Of a stretch of DNA of 16,405 nt, positions 3,894-12,322 are shown one piece after another. The position numbers and the translations under genes are program-made. Under the pieces are notes generated by a model that searched no databases, had not been told where the DNA came from, and saw nothing but the letters and a program-made list of their open reading frames with translations. This DNA is from a virus (taxonomy: Duplodnaviria > Heunggongvirae > Uroviricota > Caudoviricetes), in the IMG/VR virus record IMGVR_UViG_2563366929_000009; one strand, 5' to 3'. Within the stretch, counting starts at the first letter, position 1; each line of letters opens with the position of its first letter.

Positions 3894-3993
3894 TTTGTTT
3901 TACCTCATTACAGATTTAAGGGTGAACAAATCCCTGCCGGTGATGCTGCCAACTTACTGATTTAGTGTATGATGGTGTTTTTGAGGTGCTCCA

Positions 3994-4269
3994 GTGGCTT
4001 CTGTTTCTATCAGCTGTCCCTCCTGTTCAGCTACTGACGGGGTGGTGCGTAACGGCAAAAGCACCGCCGGACATCAGCGCTATCTCTGCTCTCACTGCCG
4101 TAAAACATGGCAACTGCAGTTCACTTACACCGCTTCTCAACCCGGTACGTACCAGAAAATCATTGATATGGCCATGAATGGCGTTGGATGCCGGGCAACA
4201 GCCCGCATTATGGGCGTTGGCCTCAACACGATTTTACGTCACTTAAAAAACTCAGGCCGCAGTCGGTAA
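3994..4269 (+). CDS. insA: IS1 InsA (transposition inhibitor / N-terminal part of InsAB' transposase)
   Basis: 91-aa [27 protein letters not shown].. recognised as IS1 InsA. Confidence 0.9.
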
Positions 4270-4691
4270 CCTCGCGCATACAGCCGGGCAGTGATGTGAT
4301 TGTCTGCGCTGAAATGGACGAACAGTGGGGCTATGTCGGGGCTAAATCGCGCCAGCGCTGGCTGTTTTACGCGTATGACAGGCTCCGGAAGACGGTTGTT
4401 GCGCACGTATTCGGTGAACGCACTATGGCGACGCTGGGGCGTCTTATGAGCCTGCTGTCACCCTTTGACGTGGTGATATGGATGACGGATGGCTGGCCGC
4501 TGTATGAATCCCGCCTGAAGGGAAAGCTGCACGTAATCAGCAAGCGATATACGCAGCGAATTGAGCGGCATAACCTGAATCTGAGGCAGCACCTGGCACG
4601 GCTGGGACGGAAGTCGCTGTCGTTCTCAAAATCGGTGGAGCTGCATGACAAAGTCATCGGGCATTATCTGAACATAAAACACTATCAATAA
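4188..4691 (+). CDS. insB: IS1 InsB' reading frame (expressed as InsAB' transposase by -1 frameshift)
   Basis: -1 frame relative to insA and overlapping its 3' end; A6C slippery motif at 4243..4251. Sequence ..[30 protein letters not shown].. is typical IS1 InsB. Confidence 0.88.
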
Positions 4692-4784
4692 GTTGGAGTC
4701 ATTACCGAGAAAGATGATGTCTACATAGCCAATTGTATAGAAAAAGGTAAGACTGAATTTAAAGTAAGCAAAGATATTGCTGCG

Positions 4785-5159
4785 TTGCCTTTCAAGGGTG
4801 AACCCATCGAGAAAATTAGGGGAGAGCTAATCAGGTCAATCAAGGAACACTTGATCAGTGCAAGCTGGCATAGCACTAAAAAGGTAATCGACCGCTATGA
4901 AGCTACATTCGATATAAAAGTACAAAAAGACTGTCCGATAGAAGCTATTGAATTGGCAACCCTCAATCGAAATCACTTAGTGCATCGTGGTGGAAAGGAT
5001 AAAGAAGGGAACCTCGTAGTGATTACAGACCAGGATCTTGAAACGCTGATTGAAAATGCATCGAACCTGGCAATTATGCTCTACAACAGTTTAAATGTAG
5101 CAACGAATAAAACCACCATTTTGCAACCAGATGACAAACCGTTCATTCATGAATTTTAA
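4785..5159 (+). CDS. Hypothetical protein, probably a 5'-truncated remnant (frame open back to the IS1 junction at 4707)
   Basis: ORF-track start is TTG with no Shine-Dalgarno. The same frame stays open upstream to the insB stop at 4689..4691, with no ATG or GTG in between. AT-rich codon composition unlike the flanking prophage genes. No recognisable family motif. Confidence 0.45.
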   Translation: MPFKGEPIEKIRGELIRSIKEHLISASWHSTKKVIDRYEATFDIKVQKDCPIEAIELATLNRNHLVHRGGKDKEGNLVVITDQDLETLIENASNLAIMLYNSLNVATNKTTILQPDDKPFIHEF

Positions 5160-5174
5160 TAGCGCAGGTCATAC

Positions 5175-6176
5175 ATGGATATTCGCACACGAAAGACAAA
5201 ATTTTTAGAGTCGTTAGATTCAACTGAAGTGATACGCAAAGCAGTAAGTCTCGCTATAGATTGCATTATTGATAATCATAATAGTAATGAAGATACCCCC
5301 TTAGTTATTACCAGCTATGATGATCTCTGTAGAATCCAGGTGCTAAATTATGTACAGGAGTTTTGCGAAGCTGCATTCCCTGATATGGATGAATATTACT
5401 TTAGTCCTAACATACTTCGCATCAACGGCAAGACTAGTGAAGAAGCTTGTATTAACTTAATTAAACTCTTAAGAAGTACAAAAGGCATGCTATTCTGGTC
5501 CGATGCCCCATCGTGGTTCGCTAGCCTCCCCGACGGATTATTCCATGTTGTTAACATTGATCAAAAAATCGTTACTCGCGGCCTTAATAAGAAAAACTCT
5601 AAGCCGACAATAATCAATAAAGATTACAGTGTAGATACACTACTATCAGAGCTATTTTTGAATGGCGCACACATGGAGCAACCCAACGTACACAACGTTT
5701 CTGAGGGAAACATGAAGTTCTATGATGAATGCCATGCTGGATTAATCAGACCAATACCCGCTCCAATAGGCGCGTCATACGATGAAGAGATCACAATTAA
5801 TTCTCCAGATTGGCAAAAGCTCGCGTGTGTAGCTTTACGCCGCTATCAGTCGAAGGAATGTCATGACGGAATGCAATGGGATACAACCGATCATGGTTGG
5901 ACTGATGTAATCGCGTATCCATTCGTCGAAGAAATACAATCAATGGATAATAGTGGTTATCGACAATGTTTAGTTGGGCTGGTCACAATAAACAATTCAA
6001 ATGCAAATTCTCCGTACCTATCTACCGTTTGGATACATCCATTTTATCGCAGGAGAGGGTTATTAAGTAAGTTATGGCCAAAATTACAAGAGTTATATGG
6101 AAGTAACTTCGAAATTGAGCGACCTAATGAAAATATGAAAGCATTTCTGAAAAGTGCGAAACACGCAGATTACTAA
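5175..6176 (+). CDS. Hypothetical 333-aa protein with a C-terminal GNAT-acetyltransferase-like motif
   Basis: ATG with weak AGGT Shine-Dalgarno 5 nt upstream. Visibly AT-rich. C-terminal segment LVGLVTINN..YLSTVWIHPFYRRRGLLSKLWPKL resembles GNAT motif A (beta4-alpha3, V.P..RR.G). The N-terminal ~230 aa are unrecognised. Confidence 0.7.
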   Translation: MDIRTRKTKFLESLDSTEVIRKAVSLAIDCIIDNHNSNEDTPLVITSYDDLCRIQVLNYVQEFCEAAFPDMDEYYFSPNILRINGKTSEEACINLIKLLRSTKGMLFWSDAPSWFASLPDGLFHVVNIDQKIVTRGLNKKNSKPTIINKDYSVDTLLSELFLNGAHMEQPNVHNVSEGNMKFYDECHAGLIRPIPAPIGASYDEEITINSPDWQKLACVALRRYQSKECHDGMQWDTTDHGWTDVIAYPFVEEIQSMDNSGYRQCLVGLVTINNSNANSPYLSTVWIHPFYRRRGLLSKLWPKLQELYGSNFEIERPNENMKAFLKSAKHADY

Positions 6177-6492
6177 TTTATGAATCAGTCTGTGGAGTTA
6201 GGGTTGGTGTCAACAAGTAGGGTAAGAGCCTCAACGTGATGCTATGCCGACCTGCTCCCTGAGAATTCACACAGAAGGCTGCTAGCAATGTCTGCAGATC
6301 GCTCAAAGCGGACTAGAAGGTTAGCTTGCGTCGGACTTGGCGTATTTAAAGAAGTGCTGGTGGTGACTGGTTGTTGTGTTCCATTTCTACAGAACAAAAT
6401 CACAGAAACTATACCCAATAGTTATATTGAATCAATGATGAGACAGCCTCATATTTATCAGAACTGGTGTACGTCCAATACAGGAGGTTGTC

Positions 6493-6582
6493 GTGCTGGT
6501 TCTCAAATGTGCGCTAGCTATTGCGGCTGTAATGGCAATTTATTGTCTTGCTGTTGTTCTTATGGATCGCCTTTCTGATTGA
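6493..6582 (+). CDS. Candidate small hydrophobic peptide (29 aa: MLVLKCALAIAAVMAIYCLAVVLMDRLSD if GTG is read as Met)
   Basis: Near-consensus Shine-Dalgarno AGGAGG at 6482..6487, 5 nt before GTG at 6493. Single predicted transmembrane helix plus short charged tail. Possible -35 TTGAAT / -10 CATATT about 40-60 nt upstream. Below the ORF-track size cutoff. Confidence 0.3.
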   Translation: MLVLKCALAIAAVMAIYCLAVVLMDRLSD

Positions 6583-7396: not shown

Positions 7397-8443
7397 GTGC
7401 GAGTATTACTTCGACCTGTTCTGGTACCGGAACTCGGGCTGGTGATCGTTAAGCCGGGCCGTGAATCCATGCCGGTATTCCACAATACCCGGGTACTGGT
7501 GGAGCCGGAACCGAAAAGCATGCGTAATCTGCCGTCCGGGGTTGTTCCTGCCGTTCGCCAGCCGCTAGTGGAAGACAAAACATTGCTGCCGTTTTTCAGT
7601 AACGCACGGGTGATTCGTGCTGCTGGTGGTGCTGGTGCATTGTCTGACTGGCTGTTGCGCCATATTAAATCCTGCCAGTGGCCACACGGCGATTATCATC
7701 ACAGCGAAACCGTCATTCACCGTTATGGTACCGGCGCAATGGTGTTGTGCTGGCACTGCGACAACCAGCTGCGTGACCAGACATCCGAATCACTCGAGCA
7801 ACTTGCTCATCAAAACCTGTCAGCATGGATGATTGACGTCATACTCCATGCAATGAATGGCTCGCAGGAACGGGAATTATCGCTGGCTGAATTATCCTGG
7901 TGGGCGGTCCGCAATCAGGTGGCGGACGCGCTACCGGAAGCGGTATTACGTCGTTCGCTGGGGTTGCGTGCGGAAAAAATCCGCTCAATGTACCGTGAAA
8001 GCGACATCGTACCGGGAGAGCAGACCGCCACCAGCATACTGAAGCAGCGCACAAAAAATCTTGCGCCGCTGCCTCACGCCCACCAGCAAAACCCGCCACA
8101 GGAAGAGACGGTGGTCAGCATTGCCGTTGATCCTGAGTCTCCGGAATCTTTCATGAAACGACCTAAACGTCGCCGCTGGGTTAACGAGAAATACACACGC
8201 TGGGTGAAGACACAGCCGTGTGCGTGTTGTGGTAAGCCAGCCGACGATCCCCATCACCTGATTGGTCATGGTCAGGGCGGAATGGGGACAAAATCTCACG
8301 ATATTTTCACGCTACCGCTGTGTCGGGAGCATCACAACGAGCTTCATGCGGATCCTCTGGCGTTCGAAGAAAAGCATGGTTCTCAGGTTGATTTAATTTT
8401 TCGTTTTCTTGATCACGCCTTTGCAACTGGCGTGCTTGGGTAA
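7397..8443 (+). CDS. DUF968 / YdfU-like lambdoid nin-region protein with C-terminal Cys/His (HNH-like) cluster
   Basis: 348-aa ORF, GTG start with GGAGG Shine-Dalgarno. C-terminus CACCGKPADDPHHLIGHGQGGMGTKSHDIFTLPLCREHHNELH. Sits immediately upstream of rusA and Q, as ydfU does in Qin-type prophages. Confidence 0.75.
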   Translation: MRVLLRPVLVPELGLVIVKPGRESMPVFHNTRVLVEPEPKSMRNLPSGVVPAVRQPLVEDKTLLPFFSNARVIRAAGGAGALSDWLLRHIKSCQWPHGDYHHSETVIHRYGTGAMVLCWHCDNQLRDQTSESLEQLAHQNLSAWMIDVILHAMNGSQERELSLAELSWWAVRNQVADALPEAVLRRSLGLRAEKIRSMYRESDIVPGEQTATSILKQRTKNLAPLPHAHQQNPPQEETVVSIAVDPESPESFMKRPKRRRWVNEKYTRWVKTQPCACCGKPADDPHHLIGHGQGGMGTKSHDIFTLPLCREHHNELHADPLAFEEKHGSQVDLIFRFLDHAFATGVLG

Positions 8444-8455
8444 AAGAGGTGACTG

Positions 8456-8830
8456 ATGCTCATAGATTTGGTTTTACCTTACCCGCCGACGGTGAACACT
8501 TACTGGCGACGCCGTGGCAGCACATATTTTATCTCGGAGGAGGGAAAGCGTTATCGCCGGGCTGTGGCGCTTATTGTTCGCCAGCAGCGGCTGAAATTAA
8601 GCCTGTCCGGAAGGCTGGCGATAAAGGTGATTGCAGAGCCACCGGATAAGCGTCGTCGCGACCTGGACAATATCCTGAAAGCACCGCTGGATGCGCTGAC
8701 GCATGCGGGAGTGTTAATGGACGATGAGCAGTTTGATGAAATCAATATCGTTCGTGGTCAGCCAGTATCTGGTGGACGTATGGGGGTGAAGATTTACCCC
8801 ATAATGCATGAAGAGCAGGTCAAAAAATGA
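8456..8830 (+). CDS. rusA: RusA Holliday-junction resolvase
   Basis: 124 aa. Motifs ..PPTVNTYWRR.. and ..PDKRRRDLDNILKAPLDALTHAGVLMDDEQ.. match the RusA family (catalytic Asp cluster). AGGTGA Shine-Dalgarno. Confidence 0.9.
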   Translation: MLIDLVLPYPPTVNTYWRRRGSTYFISEEGKRYRRAVALIVRQQRLKLSLSGRLAIKVIAEPPDKRRRDLDNILKAPLDALTHAGVLMDDEQFDEINIVRGQPVSGGRMGVKIYPIMHEEQVKK

Positions 8831-9648
8831 AACTGGAAGATTTACCGAAATACTACTCCCCAAAATCCCCTGGCCTGACCGATGCATCGGCCTCAACGTC
8901 AAAAGATGCGCTGAGTATCACTGATGTGATGGCCGCGCAGGGCATGACACAGAATCGGGCTGAGATGGGGTTTTCTGCGTTCCTGGGGAAAATGGGCATC
9001 AGTATGAATGACAGGGCGCGGGCAACAGAATTACTGGCAGATTATGCACTCAGTCGGTGCGATCGTGTGGCGGCGTTGAGAAAACTTCCGGCAGAAATAA
9101 AACCGGTAGTGATGCGCATTATGGCTTCGTATGCGTTTGAAGATTATGCCCGTAGCGCGGCGAGCAAAAAACAGTGCCCTTGCTGTCACGGAAAAAAATT
9201 TATTGAAAGCGAGGTTTTTACAAACAAGATCCAGTATCCGGATGGTAAGCCACCAGTGTGGGCAAAGTGCACAAAAGGCGTGTATCCGTCTTACTGGGAA
9301 GAATGGAAAAAAGTCAGGGAGGTGGTAAAAGTTGCCTGTCCGGAGTGTGGCGGAAAGGGTGAGGTTTCCACCGCCTGTAAGGATTGCCGTGGGCGTGGTG
9401 TCGCCATTCATCGTGAAGAGTCGGTAAAACGTGGTATGCCTGTTATCAGAGATTGCCAGCGTTGTGGTGGTCGTGGCTGTGAAAGGCTGCCATCAACGGA
9501 GGCATTTAATGCCATATGCAAAGTGACGAGTGCTATCACGCTTGATACGTGGAAAAAATCAGTGAAACGCTTTTACGATACGTTGGTGGTTCGGTTTGAC
9601 ATTGAAGAGGCATGGGCGGAGCGGCAGTTAAAGAGGGTAACGCGATAG
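8827..9648 (+). CDS. Q: Late-gene antitermination protein Q-like
   Basis: 273 aa. Start overlaps the rusA stop (ATGA). Lies directly upstream of a pR'-like promoter. Carries four CxxCxGxG-type Cys repeats (CPCCHGKK, CPECGGKG, CKDCRGRG, CQRCGGRG). Confidence 0.8.
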   Translation: MKLEDLPKYYSPKSPGLTDASASTSKDALSITDVMAAQGMTQNRAEMGFSAFLGKMGISMNDRARATELLADYALSRCDRVAALRKLPAEIKPVVMRIMASYAFEDYARSAASKKQCPCCHGKKFIESEVFTNKIQYPDGKPPVWAKCTKGVYPSYWEEWKKVREVVKVACPECGGKGEVSTACKDCRGRGVAIHREESVKRGMPVIRDCQRCGGRGCERLPSTEAFNAICKVTSAITLDTWKKSVKRFYDTLVVRFDIEEAWAERQLKRVTR

Positions 9649-9653
9649 TGTTG

Positions 9654-9693
9654 TTGATTTTTCCCGAATCTGTGGTAAATTTGCTCTAACGAT
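9654..9693 (+). promoter_or_regulatory. Late promoter pR' with promoter-proximal pause element (qut region)
   Basis: -35 TTGATT (9654..9659), 16-nt spacer, -10 TAAATT (9676..9681). Downstream TTTGCTCTAACGATGGG closely matches the lambda pR' initial transcribed region (TAAATTTGACTCAACGATGGG), including the AACGAT pause-inducing element. Confidence 0.7.
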
Positions 9694-9730
9694 GGGCGTT
9701 TTATGCCTGACGTTAGAAGATTTTTTACAC

Positions 9731-9752
9731 CCCGCCGCCTGGCGGGTTTTTT
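9731..9752 (+). terminator. Intrinsic terminator tR'-like
   Basis: Stem CCCGCC / GGCGGG with loop GCCT followed by a T6 run, about 45 nt downstream of the pR' start region. Confidence 0.75.
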
Positions 9753-9872
9753 ATGACTGAAATCGCGTCAGTACAGTAAACGCGCTGGTGGCGGTGAATA
9801 CCTGTCTTTCAGCTTGCTGGCTTTTTCGACAAGAGTTATTGGTGTGTCACGTTAACCGGAAAAGGAAAAGAC

Positions 9873-10070
9873 ATGCTAAAACAGCAGGATATGACAGAAA
9901 CCGCCAGAGTGGTGTTTAATGAATTAAGCGTTACCGACCCGGCGACAGTCGGGGAGATAGCGCAGAATACTTACCTTTCACGCGAACGCTGCCAGTTAAT
10001 ACTGACTCAGCTGGTTATGGCGGGTCTGGCAGACTATCAGTTCGGTTGTTACAGACGCCTTCCGCAGTGA
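9873..10070 (+). CDS. Small hypothetical protein (65 aa) with possible helix-turn-helix
   Basis: AAGGAA Shine-Dalgarno before ATG. Segment ATVGEIAQNTYLSRERCQLILTQLVMAGL looks HTH-like. First ORF after tR' in the late operon. Confidence 0.5.
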   Translation: MLKQQDMTETARVVFNELSVTDPATVGEIAQNTYLSRERCQLILTQLVMAGLADYQFGCYRRLPQ

Positions 10071-10097
10071 AGGCTTTTTTATTTGTGGTAAATGGGC

Positions 10098-10128
10098 GGC
10101 TGGTGGGTGTTAGGGGCACCCACCAGCC
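10098..10128. repeat. Perfect 12-bp inverted repeat (GGCTGGTGGGTG / CACCCACCAGCC) with 7-nt spacer
   Basis: Seen directly in the sequence between the small HTH-like ORF and the methyltransferase. Not followed by a T-run, so more likely an operator or RNA structure than a terminator. Confidence 0.5.
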
Positions 10129-10220
10129 ATCTGCTCATGCGTCCGGATCACAAGCAAACCTCAGGCCCACTGCTTTGCGCAAAAGCAGAATGAGCCTATC
10201 AGAGACAGGCTTAATGATCC

Positions 10221-11270
10221 ATGCTTAATACTGTAAAAATATCCAGTTGTGAGTTAATCAACGCCGACTGCCTGGAATTTATCCGGTCGTTACCCGAAAA
10301 TTCTGTTGACCTGATAGTCACGGACCCGCCGTACTTTAAAGTGAAGCCTGAGGGCTGGGATAACCAGTGGAAGGGCGACGATGATTACCTGAAGTGGCTG
10401 GACCAGTGTCTGGCGCAGTTCTGGCGGGTGCTGAAACCTGCCGGAAGTCTTTACCTGTTCTGTGGTCATCGCCTGGCATCTGATATCGAAATCATGATGC
10501 GTGAACGCTTCAGTGTGCTGAACCATATTATCTGGGCGAAGCCGTCCGGACGCTGGAACGGATGCAACAAGGAAAGGCTGCGGGCGTATTTCCCCGCCAC
10601 AGAGCGCATTCTGTTCGCGGAACATTATCAGGGGCCGTATCGTCCGAAAGATGCCGGGTATGCGGCGAAGGGCAGTGCACTGAAACAGCATGTGATGGCC
10701 CCGCTGATTTCTTACTTTCGTGATGCGCGCGCGGCCCTGGGGATAACGGCAAAACAGATTGCAGATGCCACAGGAAAGAAAAACATGGTGTCGCACTGGT
10801 TCAGTGCCAGTCAGTGGCAGCTACCGAATGAAAGCGATTATCTGAAATTACAGGCGCTGTTTGCCCGGGTGGCAGAAGAGAAGCATCGGCGTGGTGAACT
10901 GGAAAAGCTCCACCACCAGCTGGTGGATACGTATACCTCACTGAACCGGCAGTATGCGGAGCTGCTGAGTGAATATAAACATCTGCGGCGGTATTTTGGC
11001 GTGACGGTGCAGGTGCCGTATACCGATGTGTGGACGCATAAACCGGTGCAGTTCTATCCCGGGAAACATCCGTGCGAAAAACCGGCAGAAATGCTGCAGC
11101 AGATAATCAGCGCAAGTAGCCGTCCTGGTGATCTGGTTGCGGATTTTTTCATGGGGTCGGGTTCAACGGTAAAAGCGGCGATGGCACTGGGGCGTCGTGC
11201 GATTGGTGTTGAGCTGGAGACCGGACGTTTTGAGCAGACAGTCAGGGAAGTTCAGGATTTAATCGTTTGA
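10221..11270 (+). CDS. Orphan DNA amino-methyltransferase, beta-class (N6-adenine or N4-cytosine)
   Basis: 349 aa. Catalytic DPPY motif near the N-terminus (SVDLIVTDPPYF) and AdoMet-binding FxGxG (FFMGSGST) near the C-terminus. Motif IV before motif I indicates beta-class. No adjacent restriction-endonuclease gene. Confidence 0.88.
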   Translation: MLNTVKISSCELINADCLEFIRSLPENSVDLIVTDPPYFKVKPEGWDNQWKGDDDYLKWLDQCLAQFWRVLKPAGSLYLFCGHRLASDIEIMMRERFSVLNHIIWAKPSGRWNGCNKERLRAYFPATERILFAEHYQGPYRPKDAGYAAKGSALKQHVMAPLISYFRDARAALGITAKQIADATGKKNMVSHWFSASQWQLPNESDYLKLQALFARVAEEKHRRGELEKLHHQLVDTYTSLNRQYAELLSEYKHLRRYFGVTVQVPYTDVWTHKPVQFYPGKHPCEKPAEMLQQIISASSRPGDLVADFFMGSGSTVKAAMALGRRAIGVELETGRFEQTVREVQDLIV

Positions 11271-11319: not shown

Positions 11320-11395
11320 GGCCCTTTAGCTCAGTGGTGAGAGCGAGCGACTCATAATCGCCAGGTCGCTGGTTCAAATCCAGCAAGGGCCACCA
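11320..11395 (+). tRNA. ileZ: tRNA with CAT anticodon, most likely tRNA-Ile2 (lysidine-type, ileZ-like); tRNA-Met not excluded
   Basis: 76 nt with encoded CCA. Acceptor stem GGCCCTT/AAGGGCC, D-arm AGCTCAGTGGTGAGAGC, anticodon loop CTCATAA, T-arm GGTTCAAATCC. Resembles my recollection of E. coli ileX. Confidence 0.85.
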
Positions 11396-11402
11396 TCACA
11401 TA

Positions 11403-11479
11403 CCGCCATTAGCTCATCAGGAAAGAGCGCCAGCCTTCGAAGCTGGTTGCGCGGAGTTCGGGTCCCCGAAGGCGGTCCA
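11403..11479 (+). tRNA. tRNA-like sequence with UCG (Arg) anticodon; degenerate, possibly a pseudogene
   Basis: Cloverleaf can be drawn (anticodon loop CTTCGAA) but with A.A mismatch in the acceptor stem, a mismatch in the T-stem and an atypical T-loop TTCGGGT (G at the conserved A58 position). Confidence 0.45.
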
Positions 11480-11492
11480 TTATCTGTATCCT

Positions 11493-11569
11493 GCGTTGTT
11501 AGCTCAGCCGGACAGAGCAATTGCCTTCTAAGCAATCGGTCACTGGTTCGAATCCAGTACAACGCGCCA
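11493..11569 (+). tRNA. tRNA-Arg (anticodon UCU)
   Basis: 77 nt. Acceptor GCGTTGT/ACAACGC, discriminator G and CCA. Anticodon stem ATTGC/GCAAT with loop CTTCTAA. T-arm GGTTCGAATCC. Confidence 0.85.
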
Positions 11570-11614: not shown

Positions 11615-11828
11615 CTCACAATTCAGGCGGTTGACTGTTGTCTGGTTTGCGGGGAGTTTGTTAAAAGAAACTGGCATGGTGAATCCCCCTGTGCGGAGGG
11701 GCAATCAGCGAGTAGGTATATGGGATAATCGCGGATTCAGGTGCTGGTACTGAATTCACCGGGAGGCACCCGGCACCATGCAATGGCACATAGCGCCACT
11801 CTCCAGCCCCTCTCCGGAGGGGCTTTTC
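11615..11828 (+). repeat. Structured unit A: promoter-like element, hairpin, SD-ATG and terminator modules
   Basis: Shares conserved blocks with unit B: CTCACAATTCAG, GTTGAC, TTTGTTAAAA, GCATGGTGAATCCCCCTG.GCGGAGGGGC, GGTATA, TCACCGGGAGGCACCCGGCACCATG, AGCCCCTCTCCGGAGGGG+T-run. Blocks are separated by divergent spacers. Tiny ORFs at 11778..11903 (41 aa) and coupled 11903..12004 (33 aa). Confidence 0.6.
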
Positions 11829-12018
11829 TGTGCCGGATACATCACAGTTTCTGGAACCTTAGGTACTACAGTATCAGTCAGGGTGCTATATTTTCAGATG
11901 TGATGAAAGCCTGTCAGCAGGCAGGGCGTATCGGAAATGACCCAGTAGAGAAAACGTTGACTCAGATACCGGTGCTGAGTTACCGGGAAACCGGCATCAC
12001 ATGACCGCTATCCTTCCA

Positions 12019-12082: not shown

Positions 12083-12316
12083 CTCACAATTCAGTAAGTT
12101 GACAGTTGCCTGTCAGACTGGGCATTTGTTAAAAAAATTTCGCATGGTGAATCCCCCTGAGCGGAGGGGCGACTGGTGACGGTATAATCTCTGATTATCA
12201 AAACGAGAATGACGCGGGTTTAGTGGCACCGGGCTGAACTCACCGGGAGGCACCCGGCACCATGTGCATGATGATACAGATACGCGGCTTTAGCCCCTCT
12301 CCGGAGGGGTTTTCTT
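12083..12316 (+). repeat. Structured unit B (paralogue of unit A)
   Basis: Same conserved module set as unit A. Includes consensus -35 TTGACA (12099..12104) and consensus -10 TATAAT (12183..12188). Terminator CCCCTC-tccg-GAGGGG + TTTT at 12294..12316. Confidence 0.6.
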
Positions 12317-12322
12317 GTGGGC

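Follow-up and report, generated by a model that had tools for sequence, protein, structure and literature searches.

An IS1-inactivated copy of the anti-phage cassette DS-33 in a lambdoid prophage of Escherichia coli, with its GNAT gene left intact

The AT-rich block at positions 4707..6176 of the window, which is the whole stretch of 16,405 nucleotides that was analysed, is very probably a copy of the DS-33 cassette, in which gene A (DS-33A) would encode an infection-activated HEPN RNase and gene B (DS-33B) a dispensable GNAT protein, and which has been inactivated here by IS1. DS-33 (working id 'GNAT') is a validated E. coli system of the DefensePredictor study (DeWeirdt et al., Science 2026, PMC13092281), and the cassette was identified as DS-33 via the accessions in the supplements of that paper, where WP_014639476.1 and WP_000354965.1 are listed as defensive (Table S6). 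Gene order and spacing are the same, the accession of A (WP_014639476.1) is shared with the intact gene of UTI89, and the tested B (WP_000354965.1) is identical to that of the window in 332 of 333 residues, with L289 in the tested protein and P289 in the window (codon 6039-6041). The first-pass annotation had proposed the block as a candidate for an undescribed module, which is therefore not the case. DS-33 is not discussed in the main text of PMC13092281, so that the data used here come from its supplementary tables, and in the literature on RiboL-PSP, on HEPN together with GNAT and on GNAT defence the cassette was not found outside the DefensePredictor supplements.

The window covers a lambdoid prophage adjoining ompW, with the gene order integrase, excisionase, 823-aa exonuclease, IS1A, two ORFs, sok/hokD, DUF968, RusA and Q, followed by a DNA methyltransferase, three tRNAs and lysis genes. 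The two ORFs (4785..5159 and 5175..6176, both on the + strand) are indeed co-directional as described before, and they are separated by 15 nt. They had also been described as AT-rich and separately acquired, and windowed GC agrees with this: 4707..6176 has a GC of 0.393 (39%), with a GC3 of 0.397 in the remnant of gene A and 0.356 in gene B, versus 0.471-0.553 (mean 0.503) in the 1470-bp windows outside the IS1/cassette region (n=212), none of which falls below 0.471. The relBE slot named in the first-pass annotation could be confirmed as well. K-12 Qin has the order relB-relE-hokD-rem-ydfU(DUF968)-ydfT(Q), and the cargo slot immediately upstream of hokD, which holds relBE there, is occupied here by the AT-rich cassette, followed by sok/hokD, although relBE is unrelated to the two genes of the cassette. 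Elsewhere in the prophage, three tRNA genes and then two STnc100 sRNA copies (11320-11566, 11645-11835, 12113-12322; Rfam, 136 and 161 bits for the STnc100 copies) are found downstream of the methyltransferase. The features of the region are as follows.

3939..4706, + strand: IS1A, 768 bp (sequence, PGAP annotation of the identical locus, comparison with UTI89)
4707..5159, + strand: 3' remnant of DS-33A, residues 171-320 and stop, pseudogene (tblastn, 100% identity)
4968..4985, + strand: codons of RNHLVH (R258..H263), the Rx4H catalytic motif, kept in the remnant (56-member alignment)
5160..5174, + strand: A-B spacer, 15 nt (tagcgcaggtcatac), with a weak AGG Shine-Dalgarno (alignment)
5175..6176, + strand: DS-33B, intact, 333 aa, WP_000354966.1, native promoter gone (PGAP, homologues)
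5175..5684, + strand: alpha/beta domain at the N-terminus of B, residues 1 to about 170, not assigned to a sequence family
5790..6173, + strand: GNAT-fold domain of B with N-terminal extension, about residues 206-333
6027..6077, + strand: VWIHPFYRRRGLLSKLW, motif-A-like acetyl-CoA loop (R292-x-x-G295) (column counts)
6177..6313, + strand: 3' flank travelling with the cassette (blastn)

The IS1A has intact ends and lacks a target-site duplication, and the event thus fits an IS1-mediated adjacent deletion. In comparison with UTI89, 5,506 bp of prophage DNA have been replaced by IS1 (UTI89 locus L001 3495..9000; window 3894-4706), which removed ydfD, dicB, ydfABC, the repressor, cro, ydaT, the replication genes and DUF977, as well as codons 1-170 of gene A and the cassette promoter, whose TGGTATAAT block (L001 about 8445-8458) falls within the deletion. 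As the repressor, cro, ydaT, dicB and the replication genes are gone, the prophage in this strain can probably be neither induced nor replicated. The frame of the remnant can be read without a stop from 4707, where IS1 ends, and 4785 is merely its first mechanical TTG, so that the earlier remark that the first ORF has no proper start was to the point: the remnant represents codons 171-320 of a 320-aa protein, and it is devoid of promoter and start codon, of HEPN/RES-NTD1, and of the opening HEPN helix, whose ALET motif contains the invariant Glu. PGAP calls it a pseudogene 'missing N-terminus'. The intact gene A (963 bp, 320 aa) is found in UTI89 and in a further 204 complete genomes of E. coli, all of them without IS1, and the IS1 form in only 4 of the 209 carrier genomes. 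A locus identical to that of the window is present in strain FDAARGOS_1301. DS-33B and the A-B spacer have been kept in the window, full-length DS-33A and the native promoter have not, and as promoter and codons 1-170 of A are deleted, the known defence function is lost and the module is inactivated by IS1. A second, independent IS1A insertion into the cassette (L068 2501-4279) is found in E. coli SF-173, where it lies in gene B between the N-terminal and GNAT domains and leaves gene A intact; the AT-rich cassette has been struck by IS1 twice.

When intact, DS-33 protects E. coli against T7, T3, Bas26 and Bas67 (PMC13092281), and the surmise that the intact cassette is an anti-phage module is borne out by these published EOP data. 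The values are given as -log10 (PMC13092281 Table S7), with two replicates each for wild type and GNAT deletion. In the initial screen they were 3.0 for T7, 3.5 for T3, 2.3 for Bas67 and 4.7 for Bas26, and the wild type reached 3.8/2.6 (T7), 3.3/2.4 (T3), 4.0/2.0 (Bas67) and 5.0/5.9 (Bas26). The GNAT deletion still gave 4.8/4.3, 3.3/3.3, 4.0/3.3 and 5.0/4.9 with the same four phages, the HEPN deletion about zero for every phage (-0.5 to 0.5), and R258A at most 0.78. Since the HEPN deletion and R258A lose defence whereas the GNAT deletion keeps it, the HEPN gene is required and, together with the promoter, suffices, and neither holds for the GNAT gene. It had been suggested that the 333-aa GNAT product is the effector, but the published deletions reverse the roles: the effector is encoded by the HEPN gene, and defence does not need the GNAT gene. 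The tested B carries L289 (PMC13092281 Table S8), whereas Pro is found at this position in 41 of 41 aligned family members, and as P289 is invariant, the tested B may be impaired already, in which case its dispensability would have been measured with an impaired protein.

DS-33A had been left without a recognisable family, which can now be assigned from the Pfam matches of its relatives and a 56-member alignment. The full product (320 aa, WP_014639476.1) consists of HEPN/RES-NTD1, the part deleted from the window copy, and a RiboL-PSP-type HEPN domain, and it has both the Rx4-6H motif and the four-helix fold of the HEPN superfamily. Invariant among the 56 aligned members are Arg and His within RNHLVH, the Arg that follows, a WH pair and the Glu of the first HEPN helix. 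The protein of E. coli scores below the gathering score of PF18870 (HEPN/RES-NTD1; 22.2 bits vs 27.4, E 1.9e-4) and has no match to PF18735 (RiboL-PSP-HEPN) at E<=10, but its relative P0101 passes the gathering score of the latter (36.1 vs 28.4), and many of the relatives (n=122) have PF18870 (precomputed) and/or PF18735. The same architecture has been described by Anantharaman et al. 2013 (PMC3710099) for fusions of the MAE_18760/RiboL-PSP HEPN with HEPN/RES-NTD1, in a purely computational study in which an N-terminal domain of about 100 aa ('mostly alpha-helical') is followed by the Rx4H HEPN; a GNAT partner is not mentioned in that paper. According to the authors of DS-33, A and PD-T4-2_B share a remote HEPN similarity (HHblits probability of 96.1 over 55% of A; PMC13092281), but a membership in PD-T4-2 (Vassallo et al. 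2022) was rejected, as the PADLOC models of that system have no match to A or B at E<=1.

A likely functional counterpart is HepS of the Salmonella prophage Gifsy-1 (Sargen et al., Nature 2026, PMC13043305), which like DS-33A is a prophage-borne single HEPN protein that suffices for defence, and whose HEPN cuts tRNA anticodon loops upon sensing a phage protein. By analogy with other HEPN defence proteins, DS-33A would be kept inactive until infection and would then cut RNA, most probably tRNA or mRNA, via its Rx4H motif, so that phage growth stops, and it would act alone, like HepS or other single-protein HEPN abortive-infection systems. In this scheme the need for the gene and for R258 comes from the published data, and the RNase step, the RNA target and the trigger are proposed from the analogy. 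The GNAT protein with its two domains is not needed for this defence and has an evolutionary life of its own, and in the window, where promoter and codons 1-170 of A went with the IS1-mediated deletion, B survives as an intact but promoterless gene.

The cassette can be described as a small operon that many mobile elements have as cargo, and it consists of an extended -10 promoter, A, the spacer and B. Upstream of the GTG start of A, an extended -10 box (TGGTATAAT) is accompanied by a GGGAG Shine-Dalgarno, and the two are conserved in E. coli, Erwinia and Aeromonas. As the conserved promoter lies within the extension of a 340-aa form of A that begins at an upstream ATG (P0001), and as the GGGAG Shine-Dalgarno precedes the GTG, the longer form probably results from a mis-called start. 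The 15-nt spacer is conserved from E. coli to Aeromonas, and A and B therefore form an operon. Both genes are real, because their homologues span genera with dN/dS values of 0.12-0.20 for A and 0.23-0.61 for B, and the dS of A and B is equal in each species pair (0.151/0.154, 0.411/0.457, 0.043/0.040).

The 3' boundary was determined by blastn of the UTI89 cassette versus Erwinia, Citrobacter, Providencia, L027 and L028. The 3' flank is homologous to copies in unrelated elements as far as about 6250, and another short block of homology extends to about 6313. In UTI89, the intact cassette takes up L001 about 8367..10608. The same-ended unit of about 2.2 kb is found in the lambdoid E. coli prophage, in Erwinia, on a Providencia plasmid, on IncFIB plasmids with phage-type genes (Citrobacter/Klebsiella/E. 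coli), and in a relaxase-bearing island of Aeromonas near SIR2 and cREC_REC genes. Judged by these alignments, DS-33 moves as a discrete unit of about 2.2 kb among prophages, plasmids, islands and a locus adjoining a P4-type primase, which goes beyond the published record. In the Aeromonas island (L064/L065 8221-10293), SIR2 and an opposite-strand cREC_REC gene flank the cassette, which looks like a small defence cluster. The right boundary of the cassette is spanned by a 96-aa Cys-rich ORF (MSADRSKRTRRLACVGLG..., 6288-6578) between gene B and sok/hokD, which is open also in L029, has no PGAP annotation and may be only a mechanical ORF.

DS-33B would be an autonomous GNAT-fold acyltransferase, which is part of the mechanism to which we commit ourselves. 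The GNAT-like segment that had been noticed in the 333-aa product is there, and the predicted structure (pLDDT 90) has the GNAT fold. W286, H288, P289 and R292 are invariant among the 41 members of the B family, G295 is found in 33 of the 41, and where the motif A pattern R/Q-x-x-G-x-G/A ends in Gly or Ala, Leu is found instead. Pfam Acetyltransf_1 stays slightly below its gathering score with the B of the window (19.9 vs 20.7) and reaches 27.0 and 26.2 with the relatives P0164 and P0166; 33 of the 41 members match at E<=1. The N-terminal domain of about 170 residues could be assigned neither to a sequence family nor, convincingly, to a known structure. Neither gene has a functional name in PADLOC, NCBIfam or PHROGs, where only the function-unknown families phrog_17908 and phrog_16994 matched, PDB sequence searches with both family profiles gave nothing meaningful, and a BFVD search gave only generic phage GNATs with E above 6e-4. 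In a scan of species-representative genomes, B was found in only 5 loci.

The GNAT toxins TacT, AtaT, ItaT and KacT come with RHH/DUF1778 antitoxins. DS-33B has the GNAT fold and the mobile-element location in common with these toxins but differs from them by its length of 333 aa, by the extra N-terminal domain and by having no small DNA-binding partner, and none of the toxin-family models matched B.

The pairing of an effector with its partner, as it had been proposed for the two genes, is not obligate, as evidenced by solo loci of each gene. In HMM searches of all fetched loci, A and B occur together in one clade only, in which identity is 86% or higher for A and 79% or higher for B. Homologues of A with up to 77% identity are solo in more than 20 loci, which are as diverse as a position adjoining sucD, another by a ParE pair in Dickeya, small integrative elements, prophage ends and a conjugative element. 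The solo A at sucD (L069 4869-5831; 77% identity) is a single-gene insertion into a region that is core-metabolic apart from it, with a CxxCxxCC-family gene on one side and sucD on the other. Homologues of B with up to 68% identity are likewise solo, and they persist down to 39% identity. In defence islands they are found by Abi_2, by RT+SLATT_5 and by DUF4062, and in another island between a TerB/BrxC/helicase block and Mrr + HEPN_Toprim_N; other solo B genes are found on a Serratia contig of conjugative-transfer genes, in marine Gammaproteobacteria and after a P4-type primase. The full-length B after the P4-type primase (L028 3854-7504), like the relatives of its GNAT half after helicase genes described below, points to a possible link to replication modules.

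A has repeatedly been lost or broken with B kept, namely in the window, in L027, L028 and L073, on the Providencia plasmid, where A is frameshifted, and partly in L029. The B-only loci L027, L028 and L073 keep the last 40-90 nt of A, and two of the three also the block upstream of A, and as their end points differ, these are independent deletions of A. That the B-only loci are ancestral and A was inserted later was rejected, because they hold this end of A, a tail that belongs also to solo A. Loss of the HEPN gene with retention of the GNAT gene has occurred at least five times, and B has been under purifying selection after the loss of A (dN/dS 0.26-0.53), which again goes beyond the published record. 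The reverse case, a broken B with A kept, was found only once, in SF-173. In L029 (7644-8606; P0147/P0148), a deletion that removed A has produced a 320-aa in-frame fusion of a DnaC-like loader (residues 1-118, with Walker A) to residues 133-333 of B, which is present on several contigs.

For the strain of the window, there is a serious chance, if somewhat less than an even one, that the whole block is inert debris and that B, without a promoter and without a function at present, is carried along as a passenger in a cryptic prophage that is decaying. The promoter was lost along with 5.5 kb including repressor/cro and replication genes, other decay products exist in the form of the DnaC-B fusion and the frameshifted Providencia A, and the IS1 form is confined to the few genomes mentioned above. 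On the other hand, the ORF of B is intact and has kept the residues that are invariant in its family, and it is possible that read-through transcription from IS1 expresses DS-33B in the window.

It can also be argued, somewhat more tentatively, that B is a conflict gene in its own right. It would then either provide a second defence with a different range of phages or encode an enzyme of counter-defence or host takeover, and its adjacency to A would be a matter of one cassette lineage only. Its solo homologues in defence islands and mobile elements with Abi_2, RT+SLATT_5, DUF4062 and Mrr as neighbours agree with this, as do the purifying selection in the absence of A and the DefensePredictor log-odds of B, which at 1.08 are above zero (PMC13092281). 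A family of proteins of about 160 aa that is the counterpart of the C-terminal half of B, and that occurs after DUF3987-like helicase genes on phage-like contigs, can be added to this side. Such relatives of the GNAT half directly follow DUF3987-type helicase genes on two phage-like contigs (L077 3619-5411; L085 130-2184), and viral and metagenome scans for them gave few full-length loci. What speaks against an independent role is that the HEPN-deleted construct, in which B was left, gave no protection against T7, T5, T3, Bas67 and Bas26, albeit with these five phages and the L289 allele, that B has no PADLOC match, and that it was absent (tblastn) from 50,697 phage records.

Rather unlikely is a functional pair in which the GNAT protein would restrain the HEPN protein by an antitoxin-like acylation brake, analogous to type VII (HepT/MntA), in which case a loss of A would be harmless and B would linger after it. 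The shared operon with its conserved spacer and the skew of the losses towards A would suit such a brake, and the GNAT deletion even raised defence, by 1.0-1.7 log with T7, 0.5-1.0 with T5 and 0-1.3 with Bas67 (PMC13092281), which in the case of T7, T5 and (one replicate) Bas67 leaves room for a damping role of B. But the GNAT-deletion strain is viable and still defends (PMC13092281), SF-173 retains an identical intact A with IS1 inside B, homologues of A with up to 77% identity are always solo, and B stays intact under selection once A is lost and persists solo in its distant homologues. HepT/MntA (HEPN-MNT) moreover has a nucleotidyltransferase as partner, whereas it is a GNAT in DS-33, the gene order is reversed, and in DS-33 the partner is dispensable and the pair not obligate. 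A classical toxin-antitoxin system as the main explanation was rejected with regard to SF-173 and the viable, defending GNAT-deletion strain, and as to type II and type VII, the partner is not needed for tolerance and there is no family-wide co-occurrence.

In practice, the locus should be annotated as 'DS-33, inactivated: DS-33A truncated by IS1; DS-33B intact' and not as a new system, and strains with the IS1 form (4 of the 209 carriers) should not be counted as having a working DS-33. That the tested GNAT allele is mutated at an invariant residue is likewise beyond the published record, and because of this allele and the restriction to five phages, the published dispensability could miss a role of B. 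The mobility of the cassette, the loss of the HEPN gene with retention of the GNAT gene, and the L289 allele make the function of DS-33B a well-posed question, and it is on DS-33B that the residual interest rests. Possibly, although we would not put it above that, DS-33B is not a passenger but a self-standing GNAT acyltransferase of genetic conflicts with a previously unseen N-terminal domain, which would tune the HEPN effector, or act alone against phages or other defences.
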